A stretch of DNA of 64,000 bases from a phage. The notes below the pieces were generated by a model. It did no database searches. It worked only from the letters and a program-made list of their open reading frames with translations, and was not told the origin of the DNA. This document shows, piece by piece, positions 12,884 to 58,002 of the stretch. Both the position numbers and the translations under genes were made by a program. Where the stretch lies: sequence record PZ379176.1, one strand, 5' to 3'. Every line of letters starts with the position of its first letter. Position 1 is the first letter of the stretch.

Positions 12884-12959
12884 GCGCTCTTAGCTCAATG
12901 GATAGAGCAGTAGCCTTCTAAGCTATTGGTTACAGGTTCGAGTCCTGTAGGGCGCACCA
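12884..12959 (+). tRNA. tRNA-Arg (anticodon UCU), CCA encoded
   Basis: Manual cloverleaf: acceptor GCGCTCT/AGGGCGC, D-arm GCTC/GAGC, anticodon loop CTTCTAA, T-arm ACAGG-TTCGAGT-CCTGT, discriminator A + CCA. Confidence 0.85.
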
Positions 12960-27264: not shown

Positions 27265-29055
27265 ATGTCAAAGATCATTTTGGGAGACACAGGTTGTAAG
27301 GAATGTATCTCTCATGGTCGTGATAAAACCCACAACCACATGATTCTCTTCCGTAACGAAGAGACTGGTGAGGAGTGGGGAAGTTGTAACCGTTGTGGGA
27401 ATTACGAAGTGTTCGAAAAGGGCACTACACCTACTCCAAACGAGAAGAAAGAGTTATCCCCTGAAGAGTTGAGAGAAGTCTTAGATGATTGCTTAGAGCT
27501 TCCTCAGGGTGAACTTACTCGCCGTTTAATCCCTAAAGCTGTATCAGAGCGGTTTGAGTGTCGTATTGGCCTCAGTCAAACTGATGGTCAGACACCAGAC
27601 AGTTACTTCTTTCCTCGTGAACGTGATGGAAACATTGTCGGATATGAGGTTAAGCTGCTAGATAGTAAGAAGTTCTATTACGTCGGCAGTGTTAAAGAAG
27701 CAGATTTGTTCGGTATGGCACAAGCCCAACGTGGAGATGTGTACAACAAGAAGCTCTTCATTTTTGAAGACCCGCTATCCTGTATGTCAGGTTTCCATGT
27801 CCTTACAGCTTTTACAAATGCAACAAACATTAAACCAGCATGTGTTTCTTTACCGTTCGGTGCAGGTTCAATCTCTTCTGTGTTGTCTCGTAATCGAGAC
27901 TTCGTAAACGGTTTTGAGGAGGTTGTGCTCTGCATGGACAACGATGATGCAGGTGAGATAGCTTTAACAAAAGGTCGTTCTTTATTCCCTCATGTTAAGT
28001 TTGCTCGTATTCCTAAAGGAACTTTCCCATACAACGGTGTGGAGAAAGAGATTAAGGATGCGAATGACATGCTTCTGTCTGGTCGTGGTCAAGAGTTATT
28101 CAACATTCTCAAATATTCAGCAAAGCGGGAATCTCCTGCTGGTGCTGTAACAATCTTTGATTGCCTTGATGATGCTCTGAAGAAAGCGGAGTGGGGTATT
28201 CCCTATCCGTGGAAAACTCTTAATGAGATGACCTTCGGTATTCGATGGGGAGAGGTGGTAGCAATTGGTGGTGGAGTAGGGAGTGGTAAAACACTCATTG
28301 CTCACGAGCTGGTTGCTCATCTGTGCTTAGAGCATGGTTTTAATGGAGGTGGCTTCTTCTTGGAAGAGAAGGTAGGCATGTCTGTTAAGAACATCGCTGG
28401 TAAGTCAGCATCAATTCCTTTCCACCGACCTGATGTTGAATATGATGAGGAGGATTTGCGTAATGAAGCACTTCGTTATGCAGACAAATTCTTCTTGTAT
28501 GACAACTTCGGACAGAACGAATGGGAAGACATTAAACAGTGTATACGTTTCTGGGTAGTTGAAAACCAGTGTAAGTTTATCATCCTTGATAACATTACCG
28601 CTCTGGTGTCTCATTTAACTCCTTCAGAGATTAACACTGAAATCAGTAAGATTGCTTCCGAGCTTGCTGGTATGTGCAAAGAATTAGACTTTACCGCTTT
28701 CGTTCTATCTCACCTTAATGCTCCGGCAGGTGGTGCTCCTCATGAAGAAGGTGGACAGGTACGTGAAGTACAGTTCACTGGCTCTCGTTCTCTTATGCGT
28801 TGGTGTCAGTGTATCATTGGCTTTGAGCGTGACAAGCAAGCTGACGGCTTAGCTAAGAACCTCTCAGTCATTCGATTACTGAAAGAACGTAACTACGGTC
28901 AGACAGGTGTCTGTTATACTAAGTATATCAGTGAAACCGGTAGACTTGTAGAAAGGGAAGACTTTGAAGTTGATGAAGATAATCCATTCGTTTTAACTAA
29001 CGGAGAGGATGCAGCTTCTCTCGTCAACCAAGCAGATGGAGCTTCACCGTGGTAA
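27265..29055 (+). CDS. T7 gp4-type DNA primase-helicase
   Basis: N-terminal zinc ribbon CKEC...CNRCG, TOPRIM-like middle, Walker [10 protein letters not shown] and DnaB-like helicase motifs. Confidence 0.85.
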
Positions 29056-29606
29056 AGAAAAAGAAGAAAGTGTTTGCATTCGATATCGAGAGTAATGCAC
29101 TGTACGATGACATAACTAAAGTATGGTGTATTTATATCTTTGATGTTGAAACTGGTGAAAGGTGGGGCTATCGGCCTCACCAAATTGAAGATGGGATTCG
29201 TAAACTTACAGAAGCAGATGTACTAGTGGGTCATAATATTATTGACTTCGACTTACCTGCTCTGAAAAAGATGTATCCTTCTTTGATTAAATATAATTTT
29301 AACGTCTTTGACACTTTATGTCTTAGTCGATATCTTAAACCTGACCGTATTGGTGACAGTCCTGAGTATCCGAAAGGCGACCCTAGACGTGGCCCAAGAG
29401 GTCATGGTTTGAAGCAATGGGGTGAGTTCTTAGAGGAACTTAAAGGTGACTACGGTGAGCAAGAGGAAGCATGGGATGCTTTCACTGAAGATATGTTTAC
29501 TTATTGTGAACAGGACGTTAACTTAACTGTTAAGGTTTATCTTTTCTTGTGTGAACTCACGGGATTTGACCCTTACGACCCACCTTCATTATATTGGAAA
29601 ATGTAA
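29049..29606 (+). CDS. DNA polymerase 3-prime to 5-prime exonuclease domain (T7 gp5-like N-terminal part) as separate ORF
   Basis: [10 protein letters not shown] and YRPHQ...[17 protein letters not shown] parallel the T7 gp5 N-terminus; GTG start overlaps primase-helicase stop. Confidence 0.8.
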
Positions 29607-29607
29607 A

Positions 29608-30921
29608 ATGATTGTTATCCCGATTAACCAAATTGAAGATAAGGTTGCTCAACAACCTGATATCACTGTTGGTCGTCACTTCATTGAACAATTGATTAAC
29701 AACAACTTGATTCCAGATGGTATCTGTCCCATCATTACTGGTGGGGCTGTTCGTGATGCTGTCCTTAATAACATAGCTCCACATGACATTGATATCTTTA
29801 TTGTCAGAGGACAAACACCAAGAACTCAAAACACTTTCATCCCAACTGATCGTTGGCAAGAGCTTGGACGGGAGATTGAAAGTAATGTGAAGGAATGGCT
29901 AGAGTCACAAGATATTGAATATGCATCACTTCTTGCTGAAGCTACAAACGAATCCTATGCTGGGGGTTCTCAATTAACATTCACTGATATTATTGAGTTT
30001 CAGTGGAATGGGGTTCGTATCCAATTCATGTTTAATTATCCTACTTCTATTGAAGAGGTATTGGATAATTTTCCTATGATGTGCCGTGGTGCGATGACTC
30101 TTGACAACTTATTCATGACTTCTCACGGATATTTGGCTATGACTTCCCCTTGTCCAGTGGTTGTCTATAGTCGTGAAATCAGGTATGTTCACAAGAAGTG
30201 GCCTAACTCACAAGTGTTGAGATTTTCCTCTCCAGCAGTTGCGCATCAATACATGGCCCAAACTCGATATCTTCCCACACCTCAGCCAGTTAGTCATCTA
30301 GTCAATGGATTAGGTCAGGTTTCTCTTATTGAAGATACAACAAGTGCTCTATATTGTGTTAACCAAGACATGAGTCGATTCTTTGGAATCCCTTATGAAG
30401 AGATTCAGATTATGTCTAGTCTTCACGGTTCTGGTCAGATTCATGCGTATTGGTCTGAGGGGTTGACAAATTTAACGACTAACACGGGTGGTGATCTGCT
30501 TGGTCGAGAAGAGGAACCTAACCGACACAATGCAATTGAAGGGGTGTTTGTAGCCCCTGCAATGCGTCGAGCACAAGAGTCACGAAGAGAAAGCCCTACT
30601 CGTAGAACATCTTTTGAAGAAGCTCTTGGTATTACAAGTGATTCTATGGAGCGATGGATGGCTAGACCCTCTCGTGGTCGACCAAACGGCTTAACTGTTA
30701 GCGCACGTCAGTTCTCTGGTCAGGGTTTCGCTGTTGGTGATATCAACGCCCCTTCTCGTGTTATCTGGACTGATGAAGGTATGGAACAAGATTTGGGAGA
30801 TAGTCTCGCTGATCGCTTTATTGCTAACAACCCTGAAGTATTAGAACCTCAAACCCGTACAGTTCGGTTTGCCGATGAAGCGGGTCGTGGAATCTCTTTT
30901 GACATGGAAACAAATAACTAA
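29608..30921 (+). CDS. pol-beta superfamily nucleotidyltransferase (CCA-adding / poly(A) polymerase head-domain-like)
   Basis: ITGGAVRDAVL...HDIDIFIV matches GG-x-VRD and D-x-D head motifs. Confidence 0.55.
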   Translation: MIVIPINQIEDKVAQQPDITVGRHFIEQLINNNLIPDGICPIITGGAVRDAVLNNIAPHDIDIFIVRGQTPRTQNTFIPTDRWQELGREIESNVKEWLESQDIEYASLLAEATNESYAGGSQLTFTDIIEFQWNGVRIQFMFNYPTSIEEVLDNFPMMCRGAMTLDNLFMTSHGYLAMTSPCPVVVYSREIRYVHKKWPNSQVLRFSSPAVAHQYMAQTRYLPTPQPVSHLVNGLGQVSLIEDTTSALYCVNQDMSRFFGIPYEEIQIMSSLHGSGQIHAYWSEGLTNLTTNTGGDLLGREEEPNRHNAIEGVFVAPAMRRAQESRRESPTRRTSFEEALGITSDSMERWMARPSRGRPNGLTVSARQFSGQGFAVGDINAPSRVIWTDEGMEQDLGDSLADRFIANNPEVLEPQTRTVRFADEAGRGISFDMETNN

Positions 30922-30930
30922 GGAATAAGA

Positions 30931-31464
30931 ATGAGTTTACTAGGAAGTATTGAACTGCATGATGTAATTGACAATGGCTATCTGGATGCGGAGCATAAGT
31001 ATGTTAACGCTGCTAGTGTGGATATCCGTATTGGTGATACTATCCTTGTTGAAGAACAGGCTGATGGCATCGTTGATATTGATGCGAAAGAGAATCTTCA
31101 GTGGAAGGAAGTAAAGATTCCTGAAGAGGGTTTGGTTATCACTCCGGGTCAGTTCTTCTTGGCTCACTCTATGGAGGAGTTTAATCTTCCAGATAACATC
31201 TCAAGTCTGTTTGTTCTGCGTTCGTCTATGGCTCGTTGTGGTTTGAACCACCTTCACGCCGGTTGGGCAGATGCAGGATTTAATAGTAGTAAGCTGACAT
31301 TTGAATTCCATAACGTAACCAAGCACCACAGCTTACGAGTTCGTGCTGGTATGCGTGTTGGTCAGATGGTTATGTTTGAGCACTCTCATGCAGGGGAACA
31401 TTCCTACGCAGTGAAGGGTCGTTATAATAACTCTGAAGGTGTGGTTGCATCTAAAGGTGTGTAA
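30931..31464 (+). CDS. dcd: dCTP deaminase
   Basis: ASVDIRIGD and HAGWADAGF motifs typical of the dCTP deaminase/dUTPase fold. Confidence 0.7.
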   Translation: MSLLGSIELHDVIDNGYLDAEHKYVNAASVDIRIGDTILVEEQADGIVDIDAKENLQWKEVKIPEEGLVITPGQFFLAHSMEEFNLPDNISSLFVLRSSMARCGLNHLHAGWADAGFNSSKLTFEFHNVTKHHSLRVRAGMRVGQMVMFEHSHAGEHSYAVKGRYNNSEGVVASKGV

Positions 31465-32152: not shown

Positions 32153-32482
32153 ATGTTAGATTTGAGTAAAGTGGCCCCGCCCACTGAAGAGATTACAAAA
32201 TCCAAGGTGATGCAACAGTTTTATCATCGTGATATGCTTGGTCGCTTTATCAAGAATCGTGATGTTGTTGCTTGGTCTATTGGTAATCAGGGATATCTGT
32301 TGAAGGTTCTTCAGGTTACAGGTTCAACTGCTAAGCGAGTTAAGGTGTATGACCCTGAAATGGGGCGTTCTAAGTCAGTAGACCCACAGAACTGCATCGT
32401 AATTACCCAGCAGGTAATGGATAATATTGCACGTAACGTTGCTAACTCAGTTGAACTTGATGGAGAAAACCCAAATGCATAA
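32153..32482 (+). CDS. hypothetical protein (109 aa)
   Basis: ORF track; SD GGAGAGAG. Confidence 0.45.
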   Translation: MLDLSKVAPPTEEITKSKVMQQFYHRDMLGRFIKNRDVVAWSIGNQGYLLKVLQVTGSTAKRVKVYDPEMGRSKSVDPQNCIVITQQVMDNIARNVANSVELDGENPNA

Positions 32483-33038
32483 GAATGTTTTTGATTTACC
32501 TGAGATTGGTCGTGACAGCTATAGCATGTTAGACCGGTCCGACCTATCAATCTCTCGCCTTGAAACAATGCAAGGCATGATTAGTGGAAACAGCCTAGAA
32601 CACATCCTGAGCTGCTTACAAGCTAACATGGAACTCTTGCATATCAAAGCTAAAAACTACCACTGGAACGTCTCTGGTGCAGGATTTCAGGGTGTTCATG
32701 GTATGTTTGATGAGCTGGAAGATTACGCACGACAGGTAGGAGATCGTATTGCTGAACGTATGCGTTACCACTGTGTTAAAGTGGATGCTACAGCAGCTAA
32801 TTATCTTTCTCATGCTTGGTTCTCAGAGGGGAATGCTGATCTAGACATGGACGGTATGCTCTCTGATATGTGCATGACCTTGATGTGTATTATTGAGAAG
32901 ATGGATGAGTTTGATGGTGATTTAGCCTCCTACCCTGTCGATCAGAGTATGCTTCAAGAAATTAATGAAGGTCTTGGCAAGTATTGCTACTTCGTCAAGA
33001 GCAACATGTCCCATTCAAGTGGTGACGTGTCTTACTAA
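32460..33038 (+). CDS. Dps-like ferritin-superfamily protein
   Basis: LQANMELLHIKAKNYHWNVSGAGFQGVHGMFDELEDY...DRIAER matches the Dps core signature; start at 32460 or 32475. Confidence 0.6.
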   Translation: MEKTQMHKNVFDLPEIGRDSYSMLDRSDLSISRLETMQGMISGNSLEHILSCLQANMELLHIKAKNYHWNVSGAGFQGVHGMFDELEDYARQVGDRIAERMRYHCVKVDATAANYLSHAWFSEGNADLDMDGMLSDMCMTLMCIIEKMDEFDGDLASYPVDQSMLQEINEGLGKYCYFVKSNMSHSSGDVSY

Positions 33039-37661: not shown

Positions 37662-38084
37662 ATGCCATTACCAGCTAGATATCCAAACCGTTTCTTAGTT
37701 CTCAAGTGGGATGATATCGAAATGAATCTCACTGAACATGAACTGGATTTGTTCCATGAATTATTATCAGAAATTCGCTCTGGTATTCCTGAACGTCAGT
37801 ATGTGGTTATCAGTGATAAACACCCTCAAGAGTTTGAAGAGGCTTGGGGTATGAAGCTGGCTTATATTCAGAGAGCTATTCAAGAAAGAGAAGAAGTTGC
37901 CAATCAGAGGGTTGTGGCTCATTTAGTACGAGAGCAACCTCGTGAAGCTAGGGCTAACCATGCACCACCTCCACCCCCTCCTTGGACAGTTGTCAACGGG
38001 ACGGTTAGGGCTTATAGTGATGAAGCTACCATGTTGAATGTAGTAGAAGATAACCAAGCCTTTACAGATTTACTTTACCAATAA
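37662..38084 (+). CDS. hypothetical protein (140 aa) with proline run
   Basis: ORF track; HAPPPPPPW. Confidence 0.45.
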   Translation: MPLPARYPNRFLVLKWDDIEMNLTEHELDLFHELLSEIRSGIPERQYVVISDKHPQEFEEAWGMKLAYIQRAIQEREEVANQRVVAHLVREQPREARANHAPPPPPPWTVVNGTVRAYSDEATMLNVVEDNQAFTDLLYQ

Positions 38085-38100: not shown

Positions 38101-39944
38101 GTGAGCAACCCGGACGCTCTTCCATTTTTGACAGAGATGACTGTCGCTGATATAATCTCTAAGCAAGCAAAGCACGGAGTGAGTTTCAACCGAAGAAATG
38201 CTCGGTGGTATGTTCACCTCCTTAAAGAGATTATTGTTAATATTGACAGAGAGTTGATTCCTCTCTTACCTAAGATGAGATTAGATGGCTCTACTTACAT
38301 GAAGCCATTTAAGAAGTCTGGAGCTTTACAGAAGTGGCCTCAAGCCTATTGTGATAGGGTTGGGCTGAAAAGAGAAGATATTGGTGGAGCTTTCACCTGC
38401 GTCGAATACGTAGACTTTGACCCATCGAAAGATGCACGAGTTAAAGAAGCTCTTATGGATGAGGGTTTTCTTCCTCCAGAGTTTAACGTATCTAAGAAGC
38501 CTTGGAATACTTTCGAAATTAAGAAAGATATGCGAAAGTATGGAACATACCAAGCATGGTATACTGCTTGGATGCGAGGTAATGCTAAGCAAAAGCAGAC
38601 AGCCGAGATGGTTGACGCTGATATTAAGAAGTTCTTAGAAAAGCATTTCAGGTTTAAAACTAAGAACTATATGAAGGCTTACGTATTTGGTTTGGGATTA
38701 AACCCGAATCGCCGTAATCCTGTAACGTTTGATGAGATTAAGAAAGCACTAGCCACATCAAACAAGTGGCCTACAGCTCCTACAAACCTCGAGGAGACTC
38801 TTGAAGAAGGGTTAGGGGTGAGCTAGGGAGTGTCGGAAGTTTGCTTAAGAGACGCGTTGTAGCGGCTCACAGGCTAGGTCTTATCAGTGGACTCATAGCA
38901 AAGGAACGCGAAGATGGTAAACTTTCGGCAGAAGCTAACAGCTGCGCTACGCCGACTTTTCGATTCAAACATCGTATCGTGGTTAATATTCCCTCCCGTG
39001 GTCTGTTTGGTCACGAGTGTCGCAGTTTGTTTGAGTCTGACTATAACTCAGACAGTGATCACTCTCGTCCTTTCGTTATTACTAACGTTGTTCCTGATGG
39101 TTGTTATATACGAAAAGGTACTAACGTAATTTACGAGAAAGGTAAGCCGGGGAAGAAAGATAAACCTATAGGTGCTTACAAATATTACATACCCGCTGGT
39201 AAAGAAGTATTCTTAGGGTATGATGGTTCTGGACTTGAACTTCGTATGCTCGCTCACTACCTCATTAAAGAGTGTAGGGATATGCTTGCTGAGGCAATTG
39301 AAGAGAACAACCCAGCTAAGAAAGCTCTGGCAGAACGTGGTTTAGCTTCTGCTATTATGTATCGTGATATTCTCCTTGAAGGTGATATCCACTCCCACAA
39401 CCAGAAACTTGCTGGTCTTCCTACTCGTGACAACGCTAAGACGTTTATCTACGCATTCAACTATGGTGCTGGTGATGCTAAGCTTGGTTCAATTGTAGGT
39501 GGTGGGGCTGACGAAGGTTCAGTGATGCGAGCACGTTTCTTAGCAGAGAACCCATGTATTGCAATCCTCATTGATCGTATGACAGAGAAAGCTGCTCAAG
39601 GATACTTGATTGGAGTTGATGGTCGTAAGATTACAATGAGACGGGATGCCACTGGTAAGGTTATGGTTCATAAAGCCCTTAACACACTCCTGCAATGTGC
39701 TGGTGCTGTTGTTATGAAATATGCTATGATGTTCCTTAACAAGTGGATTGAGAAAGATAAGGTTCGTTGTGCTAAGGTAATTGATATGCACGATGAAGGT
39801 CAATTCTCAGTAAACCGTAATGATGTACAGAAACTCAAAGAGCACACCGAGCTTTGTGTTAAGAAAGCTGGCGAGTATCTGAATATGGAATGTCCTCTGG
39901 CATCTGATTGTCAGATTGGACTTAACTGGATGCATACACACTAA
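38101..39944 (+). CDS. DNA polymerase, polymerase domain (T7 gp5-like palm/fingers), interrupted by a frame break near 38805-38826
   Basis: SKQAKHGVSFN; EDGK...FRFKHRIVVNIPSRGLFGHECRSLF; DGSGLELRMLAHY; LPTRDNAKTFIYAFNYGAGDAKLG; MHDEGQF parallel T7 gp5; GTG start with SD AAAGGAG. Confidence 0.8.
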
Positions 39945-56970: not shown

Positions 56971-58002
56971 TTATAGTCCAGCAAAAACCTTAGCTGCATT
57001 TATTACAGGAACTGATAAATTAACTACAGTATCAGCTCCTAGGTCGTAATTTTGATCCCACTGAAACAGATATCTTCCATAGCCAGTTCCTATGCTAGAG
57101 CCACTCATTGTGTGAGATCTCATTTGCTGATATCTCCACCCACTACCTCGACCTTTTATTGCACCTATTCCAGAAGTAAGAGGTATCATAGGATATGCCA
57201 TACCAGTGTTGCCCCCTCCCGAACCAATAAAATTGTCTACAGTGAAAGGTGTTCTATTAGTAGAGAAGACACATTGAGTTGTCCCAGGAGAATATATGTT
57301 TAACCCACCATTATGCTCAGGAACACCAGCTCCGTTACAGAACACAGCGACTCTAACAAAGACAGAACCACCTTCGTTAGTGTTACCATTGACATAAGGC
57401 CTATTCTGATAGACTCGAATAACCCTATCATCAGATGTGTAAGATAAACCGATCCCTCCATCAGACCAATTAGCAAACACAACAGCATTGGTCATATTGA
57501 ACCCACCAATATTTGGTATCTGAAGGGAGTTGTTTATGGTCCCCTGCCAAGCCCAAATACATTGACCAACAACCCCACTATCAGAGATTGAGAAATAATC
57601 TGCTGTATTTGAGAAAGTGATTCCATAGTTTCTGTCAGCTCTAGGCCATATTTGGTATACGTTGAACCCACAGTCAAATAGTGGGTTACTACCGGGATTC
57701 TGGTTCAGAGTCACCCTAAAAGATGAGTTATTTTCTACATAGATGTTATTTACACAATAAACATCAGGGACTAAGTTAGGAGGGACTTCCCATTGCCAGC
57801 ATAGAGAACCAGTAGGAACAATAACTATCTGACCGCTACCATCCCATCCACTAATAGGGAAAGATCTCCCTGCTCCGTTAAAGTTAAAACTCCCTCTTAT
57901 ACTATTTTTGAACTGAGGGAAAGTGCTTCCACTGTCTATAAAAAGAGGGGCTGGTGTAGCTGGTCCCGGCCCTACTGGTTGTGTCCAAATTCCATATGCC
58001 AT
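56971..58002 (-). CDS. virion structural protein (343 aa)
   Basis: ORF track; Gly/Asn/Ser-rich; position in late block. Confidence 0.5.
   Translation of the reverse strand: MAYGIWTQPVGPGPATPAPLFIDSGSTFPQFKNSIRGSFNFNGAGRSFPISGWDGSGQIVIVPTGSLCWQWEVPPNLVPDVYCVNNIYVENNSSFRVTLNQNPGSNPLFDCGFNVYQIWPRADRNYGITFSNTADYFSISDSGVVGQCIWAWQGTINNSLQIPNIGGFNMTNAVVFANWSDGGIGLSYTSDDRVIRVYQNRPYVNGNTNEGGSVFVRVAVFCNGAGVPEHNGGLNIYSPGTTQCVFSTNRTPFTVDNFIGSGGGNTGMAYPMIPLTSGIGAIKGRGSGWRYQQMRSHTMSGSSIGTGYGRYLFQWDQNYDLGADTVVNLSVPVINAAKVFAGL

Follow-up and report, generated by a model that had tools for sequence, protein, structure and literature searches.

A divergent CCA-enzyme-like nucleotidyltransferase with a lysine-free disordered tail in the replication gene block of Kuravirus phages

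The nucleotidyltransferase locus

The 64,000-nucleotide stretch of phage DNA analyzed here (record PZ379176.1; hereafter the window) belongs to a Kuravirus (Gordonclarkvirinae; phiEco32-like prolate podophages) and carries, at 29608-30921 on the plus strand, an intact open reading frame (ORF) coding for a nucleotidyltransferase (NTase) of 437 residues, with its ATG at 29608 and its stop codon at 30919-30921. The gene is 99.8% identical to its counterparts in Escherichia phage ES17, Shigella phage ShigP1, and phage myPSH1131. It is embedded in a block of replication and nucleotide-metabolism genes, in the very position, between the polymerase exonuclease gene and dcd, that a first-pass annotation made from the sequence had given it:

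27265..29055, plus strand: primase/helicase (Pfam DnaB_C), opening the block primase/helicase - exonuclease - NTase - dcd
29049..29606, plus strand: DNA polymerase 3'-5' exonuclease subunit, the upstream neighbor (Pfam DNA_pol_A_exo1, E 2e-8)
29608..30921, plus strand: the whole NTase gene, orthologue of ES17 gp073, phiEco32 gp73, and SU10 CDS74
30931..31464, plus strand: dCTP deaminase (dcd), the downstream neighbor (Pfam DCD, E 3.6e-34)
12884..12959: tRNA Arg, anticodon TCT, with a gene-encoded 3' CCA (ARAGORN, Rfam)

The stop of the exonuclease gene adjoins the NTase ATG, 1 base before it, and a ThyX gene lies close to dcd. An alternative, unsupported GTG start at 29551 would overlap the upstream gene and is disfavored because all members of the family open with MI.IP at the position of the ATG at 29608. 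A promoter and terminator scan across 26-33 kb returned a site count not above that of shuffled sequence.

The gene already bears the annotation 'nucleotidyltransferase' (phrog_12715; SU10 CDS74, 2014), and the phrog_12715 profile matches it over its full length (residues 1-437 against profile positions 1-457, E 7.6e-244). Several GenBank records more specifically label it the NTase domain of a class II CCA-adding enzyme, as does the SU10 genome paper of 2014, which also recorded one peptide of the protein by mass spectrometry (PMC4281155). The family is accordingly known and annotated, and the core of the first-pass observation is contained in the existing annotation.

Domain architecture, active site, and lysine desert

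A full-length AlphaFold model built from a shallow alignment was confident in its N-terminal part, with the predicted local distance difference test (pLDDT) falling below 50 over residues 283-437. A second model (AF2), of residues 1-300, drew on an alignment of about 25 divergent family clusters collected by an exhaustive HMMER search; it reached a pLDDT of 87.2 and a predicted template modeling score (pTM) of 0.84, with confidence persisting to approximately residue 289. As modeled, the protein comprises three parts, viz., an NTase head, a family-specific helical subdomain, and a disordered tail. These are listed below along with the motifs discussed in the text; conservation was assessed across 28 family representatives with less than 50% identity among them:

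29608..30252, plus strand: NTase head domain, residues 1-215, kept in every relative
29740..29793, plus strand: motif A, G45-G46-A-V-R49-D50 ... D60-I-D62, a helix-turn plus metal-binding carboxylates, invariant in 28/28 representatives
29986..29988, plus strand: D127, candidate third catalytic carboxylate on the strand 125-133, D or E in 28/28
30172..30198, plus strand: helix R189-E190-x-x-Y193-x-x-K196-K197, a family signature with Y193 and K197 invariant and position 190 D or E in 28/28
30253..30474, plus strand: family-specific helical subdomain, residues 216-289, pLDDT 74-94 with the diverse alignment, in the same globule as the head
30475..30918, plus strand: disordered tail, residues 290-437 (about 148 residues), pLDDT <50
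30730..30792, plus strand: indel hot spot of the tail, residues 375-395, from an alignment of 9 orthologues
30802..30903, plus strand: conserved tail-end island SLADRFIANNPEVLEPQTRTVRFADEAGRGISFD, residues 399-432, near-identical in 8/9 Kuravirus orthologues

The roughly 350 residues downstream of the N-terminal motifs had been described in the first-pass annotation as non-canonical. This holds insofar as the body and tail domains of CCA-adding enzymes are absent, but the head runs to residue 215 and only residues ~290-437 are unstructured.

The head displays the signature of the Pol-beta superfamily, hG[GS]-x(9-13)-Dh[DE]h, with 13 residues separating G46 and D60, together with a further acidic residue. 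The head motifs noted earlier, GGAVRD (residues 45-50) and D60-x-D62, were confirmed, with G45, G46, R49, D50, D60, and D62 all invariant across the representatives. Positions 99, 127, and 190 are acidic throughout, and Y117, Q139, P156, Y193, and K197 are likewise invariant. Of the three acidic positions, 127 is a candidate for the third carboxylate, which would be expected on the strand that holds D127, and the fold topology of the model suggests that this residue is placed in the active site. The helix 189-197 is a candidate for contacting the nucleotide or its phosphates; a similar basic motif is present in the minimal NTases of phrog_1614 (see below). To judge from these conserved residues, the catalytic apparatus looks intact, and the gene product is probably an active nucleotide-adding enzyme.

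Comparison of nine Kuravirus orthologues yielded ratios of nonsynonymous to synonymous divergence (dN/dS) of 0.105 for the head, 0.19 for the helical subdomain, and 0.40 for the tail, with every tail indel in frame: the tail is a genuine coding sequence and the core is under purifying selection. In the same orthologues, the tail has the lower synonymous divergence (dS 0.295, versus 0.47 in the head) despite evolving faster at the protein level; recombination or a constraint at the nucleotide level could be the cause.

The helical subdomain is marked by two motifs, DMSRFFGIP (254-262) and YWSEGL (281-286), both of which return in distant members of the family. The tail, in turn, is Kuravirus-specific in sequence, and its length differs across the family. 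The versions from the sister genera Nieuwekanaalvirus (426 residues) and Suseptimavirus (482 residues) align well only across their first ~215-260 residues, their tails having diverged, and the more distant members, at 274-321 residues, end soon after the helical subdomain. At the indel hot spot, the Kuravirus orthologues possess the unit 'INAPSRVIWTDEGMEQD', its alternative 'LDIPSHGELAETVSR', or the two units together. The island at residues 399-432 finds a weak echo, 'A+EAGR-I.F', in the two sister genera, and its conservation makes it a candidate docking motif. The tail contains neither tandem repeats nor overlapping ORFs. A beta-clamp-type motif was also considered there, and its sequence 'QFSGQGF', judged by eye, fails the pattern QL[SD]LF.

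A further peculiarity of the protein is its avoidance of lysine. It has 4 lysines versus 31 arginines, where the window median of 6.2% would predict about 27 lysines (P 2.4e-8), and its K/(K+R) is the lowest among the 54 ORFs of the window. Two of the four lysines are K196 and K197 of the signature helix (position 196 is K in 21/28 representatives), and beyond residue 197 there are none; the tail has 18 arginines in residues 291-437 and zero lysines. The bias pervades the family: all 25 family clusters are lysine-poor (0.4-3.1% K) and past residue 215 contain 0-2 lysines versus 3-26 arginines. The phrog_1614 minimal NTases, in contrast, have a normal lysine content (3.3-10.9%). Possible explanations of this lysine desert include avoidance of a lysine-directed modification, translation under depletion of tRNA-Lys, or an arginine-based interaction of the tail. 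Five other ORFs of the window are also lysine-poor and arginine-biased, namely 56971-58002 (minus strand), 24927-25382, 37662-38084, 21271-22374, and 18877-19848, with K/(K+R) of 0.14-0.29 versus a typical value of ~0.55; they include genes of the early region (the ES17 region with the COOH-NH2 ligase and aminotransferase) and one ORF of the opposite-strand block.

Relationship to CCA-adding enzymes and to other phage nucleotidyltransferases

The defining features of class II CCA-adding enzymes are motifs A to E plus the body and tail domains in which the tRNA is held; motif B (RRD) serves in ribose recognition and motif D (EDxxR) acts as an amino-acid template for CTP and ATP. The Kuravirus protein has motif A in its class II form (GGxVRD followed by DxD), and this is the sole stretch that aligns by sequence with CCA-adding enzymes. 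Its match to the Pfam PolyA_pol head (PF01743) scores 18.8 bits, under the gathering cut-off of 23, and other family members score 13.5-21.5 bits or give no match. Many orthologues bear the Pfam label PF26128.2 in a precomputed table, but Pfam scans of these proteins in the present analysis did not reproduce it. RRD is missing from the folded region in 28/28 representatives; by eye, the equivalent stretch appears to be D-N-F-P156, with an invariant proline. Motif D, sought as [ED]DxxR, is likewise missing from the fold in 28/28, and the family carries R-[DE]-x-x-Y-x-x-K-K in its place. The AlphaFold models contain no neck, body, or tail domain of CCA enzymes, and the NCBIfam CCA and PcnB models, including pcnB / PRK11623, give no match at E up to 1.

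The first-pass annotation had recommended profile comparison and structure prediction as checks, and these gave a divided answer. At the level of structure, the head fold is nearest to those of CCA-adding enzymes and poly(A) polymerases (PAP), which are the closest solved structures at 13-17% identity, and a Foldseek search against the PDB reproduces this ranking. At the level of sequence, hhalign comparison of the family profile with E. coli Cca aligns motif A alone at a probability of 12.7%, because of which motifs B to E are unmappable by alignment. A PDB sequence search with the family profile likewise matches a CCA-adding enzyme in motif A alone (E 0.002); the same search with the single protein returned only a viral VP7 match, which we dismissed as chance.

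The structural match to solved members of the Pol-beta superfamily bears out the NTase identity proposed earlier, and we conclude that the protein is a Pol-beta-superfamily NTase with a divergent class-II-type head. Because it lacks RRD, EDxxR, and the body and tail domains, and because the NCBIfam Cca and PcnB models are silent, it is not a bona fide CCA-adding enzyme, nor do we class it as a poly(A) polymerase, and the CCA-adding label is unjustified. With the class II tRNA nucleotidyltransferases and PcnB (T. maritima 3h37, E. coli PAP 3aql, B. stearothermophilus 1miv) it has in common motif A and presumably the two-metal nucleotidyl-transfer chemistry; unlike them, it has neck, body, and tail replaced by a helical subdomain of 74 residues followed by a disordered tail. 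What is distinctive is thus the combination of a class-II-like head, a helical subdomain of its own, and a lysine-free disordered tail with none of the CCA specificity elements. A stand-alone bacterial protein from S. pneumoniae described as a 'CCA-adding enzyme head domain' (NP_344798.1; PDB 2la3) is a weaker match and is tail-less. The MenT/AbiEii toxins, MNT antitoxins, and CD-NTases have structural scores clearly below those of the class II heads, and, unlike these, the phage NTase has no toxin-antitoxin or effector partner gene nearby. PADLOC defense-NTase models gave no match at E up to 1 to the full protein, its core, or two relatives.

The closest phage counterparts outside the family are stand-alone, head-only NTases of 170-230 residues. 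Structural matches to such proteins of PHROG 1614 in BFVD reach down to E 2e-8; the phrog_1614 profile matches residues 35-155 of the Kuravirus protein (E 1.6e-7), and its members give weak reciprocal matches to phrog_12715. The minimal NTases of PHROG 1614/10174 (e.g., phi92 gp158 and LKD16 ORF16) have the same ~200-residue core as the family, with GG.(V/P)RD, DxDxF, a Q.M strand, F(D/P)...C, and the basic helix in common, but have neither helical subdomain nor tail. The Gordonclarkvirinae family, in which Y117, P156, and Y193 are invariant, is grouped in a PHROG of its own (12715).

This family is very small: a search of 1.84 billion representatives at E up to 1e-3 gives 42 clusters, of which the weakest dozen or so are other minimal NTases that lie outside it. 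In the phage collection it accounts for 98 records, all from Escherichia/Shigella Gordonclarkvirinae save three named only 'phage'. It is confined to Gordonclarkvirinae-like phages and strictly syntenic: the block primase/helicase - exonuclease - NTase - dcd recurs in the window, ES17, KBNP1711, ECBP2, and two metagenomic contigs (82-88 kb), and is preceded by a gamma-glutamyl-cyclotransferase-like gene in each locus whose full flanks were inspected. The exonuclease - NTase - dcd core is found in eight further Kuravirus records. Comparable contexts emerged when the neighborhoods of phrog_1614 members were sampled in five other lineages, with a replisome gene beside the NTase in 4/5:

phi92: NTase directly after the DNA polymerase
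LKD16: NTase between helicase and ligase
Curvibacter phage P26059A: NTase near a primase/helicase, with one HNH gene intervening
Vibrio phage 1.235.O: NTase overlapping the end of a 5'-3' exonuclease gene

A C-terminal F or W is enriched in the NTase family (7/25 clusters, P 8.5e-4). We did not use the aromatic C-terminus, as known from the tails of T7 gp4 and gp2.5, for the mechanism, because the Kuravirus NTase itself ends without one. The C-terminal aromatic residue of T7 gp4 contacts the DNA polymerase, and the end of the primase/helicase recalls it, reading ...SPW in the window and in relatives L002, L003, and L009, and ...LPF in L008.

Several other features of the window deserve mention in their own right. 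The gene for the polymerase domain of the DNA polymerase, ~8.5 kb away from that of its exonuclease subunit (29049-29606), is in two ORFs (38101-38826 and 38841-39944), because a G run near 38814 is shorter by 1 nt (a deletion) than in ES17 gp048, which is a single ORF of 614 residues; the split could be an assembly error or a genuine frameshift. The homologue of ES17 gp080 (401 residues) is interrupted by small indels near 25253 and 25357, leaving ORFs 24927-25382 and 25409-26119; the SU10 paper names one early gene of the gp080 region an ATP-grasp enzyme. This region is part of a conserved early cluster upstream (17667-27045), for which the ES17 labels include a COOH-NH2 ligase, an aminotransferase, and a gamma-glutamyl cyclotransferase; the last was confirmed by a Pfam GGACT match at 26626-27045. 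The cluster looks like a small-molecule or peptide-ligation system. Finally, ORF 32427-33038, orthologues of which are annotated 'integrase' (ES17) or 'DNA binding protein' (KBNP1711, ECBP2), matches the Pfam Ferritin-like model (E 2.9e-7) and seems more likely to be a Dps/ferritin-like protein than an integrase.

Possible functions and their implications

Given this architecture, we propose, at a probability of about 0.5, that the protein is an active, untemplated terminal NTase acting on nucleic-acid 3' ends, with its specificity conferred by the helical subdomain and, in Kuravirus, by docking of the tail. Via two-metal chemistry, it would transfer a nucleoside monophosphate from a (d)NTP onto a nucleic-acid 3'-OH with no template. 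The acceptor would in the first place be RNA, because this is the substrate of all close structural neighbors; second to it, and a real alternative because of the synteny with replication genes and the loss of the ribose-sensing motif, comes a DNA or primer end at the replication fork. As there is no tRNA-binding body or tail, we infer that the choice of substrate would be set by the helical subdomain (residues 216-289). In Kuravirus, the ~148-residue arginine-rich, lysine-free tail might also contribute, with its conserved islands docking a partner, perhaps a replication protein of the phage, perhaps a host factor.

Several points weigh against this proposal. It leaves the conserved lysine desert unexplained, and the docking role of the tail is suggested solely by sequence conservation. 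The adjacency to replication genes may reflect nothing other than shared middle-gene expression in compact genomes, and, in the fifth of the lineages sampled above, the neighbors of the ICP1 NTase are uninformative. The head is acidic (net -10, pI 4.9), which might be held against binding of nucleic acids; we discarded this charge argument because the head plus neck of E. coli Cca is equally acidic, and the feature is hence non-discriminating.

The first-pass annotation had aptly cautioned that nucleotidyl-transfer roles other than tRNA end repair should be kept in view. One such role, which we consider unlikely but worth bearing in mind, is the nucleotidylation of a protein or small molecule, be it AMPylation of a host or defense protein in the manner of MNT antitoxins on HEPN toxins or the synthesis or consumption of a signaling nucleotide, by what would then be a takeover or anti-defense enzyme. 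The protein does lack a recognizable nucleic-acid-binding domain, and one may speculate that being lysine-free and having a disordered docking tail would help it to escape modification itself. However, the silence of the PADLOC defense-NTase models, the lack of an adjacent candidate target or partner gene, and a genomic context of replication and nucleotide metabolism rather than of early host-takeover genes all speak against it.

A role in an unrecognized pathway of covalent DNA modification or DNA-end protection, acting on phage DNA or its precursors, would account for the resistance of Gordonclarkvirinae to restriction-modification (RM) systems, and appears to us a little less probable still. 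A role of this kind was suggested by the authors of the BASEL collection, who noted restriction resistance in these phages that no known modification accounts for and singled out the conserved dcd + NTase locus as a possible cause of the resistance (PMC11990801). The window carries sites for the tested enzymes (9 EcoRI, 27 EcoRV, 7 EcoKI, and 95 EcoP1), and therefore site avoidance alone cannot explain the resistance. The strict synteny with replication genes also fits such a role, and the loss of the ribose-sensing RRD would be compatible with the use of dNTPs. Nevertheless, we know of no Pol-beta-type NTase in any characterized phage DNA modification pathway, and the closest structural neighbors have RNA as their substrate. 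Moreover, ThyX beside dcd fits an ordinary supply of dTTP better than uracil-containing DNA (dU-DNA), and the strong avoidance of many other palindromes, with 0 PstI, SacI, NcoI, and BamHI sites and 1 CCWGG site, suggests that the DNA is not generally protected. As regards the site counts themselves, the window additionally has 27 HindIII and 134 GATC sites; for each zero-site enzyme (PstI, SacI, NcoI, BamHI, and several other enzymes with GC-rich palindromes) 4-13 sites were expected, and the median ratio of observed to expected is 0.78 for 6-bp palindromes versus 0.99 for all hexamers.

Genuine CCA addition or repair at tRNA 3' ends, keeping host or phage tRNAs chargeable during infection, e.g., after damage to tRNA 3' ends by a host nuclease or toxin, is the role that the first-pass annotation had thought possible and that the class II label of the GenBank records and the SU10 paper implies. 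It draws on the near-perfect motif A (GGAVRD...PHDIDI), on CCA-adding enzymes being the nearest solved structures, and on the full-length CCA-adding enzymes of jumbo phages, which have been interpreted as tRNA repair enzymes (PMC7824862). This role found no support in the analysis and we regard it as improbable: in addition to the missing specificity motifs and domains, the sub-threshold Pfam score, and the silent or motif-A-limited profile comparisons described above, the host owns a Cca gene, and the ES17 annotation lists no RNA ligase or Pnkp as a partner. The phage 'tRNA and tRNA-like genes' adduced in its favor were overstated, with the single tRNA Arg as the real part of the claim; ARAGORN and Rfam found nothing else in the window, Rfam giving no second tRNA or tRNA-like element above its thresholds, and the lone tRNA gene encodes its own CCA. 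As for a catalytically dead scaffold, or a relic with a junk tail, the very low sequence similarity to characterized enzymes and the disordered, indel-rich tail might evoke it, but it is highly improbable in light of the catalytic motif being invariant over the 28 divergent clusters, the dN/dS values and in-frame indels, the presence of the gene in all 98 matching Gordonclarkvirinae records, and the peptide detected in SU10 preparations (PMC4281155).

Many lytic phages carry a head-only CCA-enzyme-like NTase, and not one of these proteins has been given a function, our search of the literature having found no paper that assigns one. The present family is a core, strictly syntenic gene of a phage group that therapy studies now employ and that is represented in the BASEL collection. 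Its domain limits are now defined (core, residues 1-289; disordered tail, residues 290-437), D60, D62, D127, Y193, and K197 offer a candidate active-site set for mutagenesis, and any functional model must account for the conserved lysine desert. A bolder and, in our estimate, improbable extension of the proposed terminal NTase activity is that the enzyme is tethered to the replisome, has phage DNA or primer ends, or else the dNTP pool, as its substrate, and is behind the unexplained RM resistance of Gordonclarkvirinae, with the lysine desert being adaptive. If this were true, the protein would have shed its lysines in adapting to such chemistry or to a counter-measure of the host, and the CCA-enzyme-like head would have acquired a new role, one that would probably extend to replisome-adjacent head-only NTases elsewhere.

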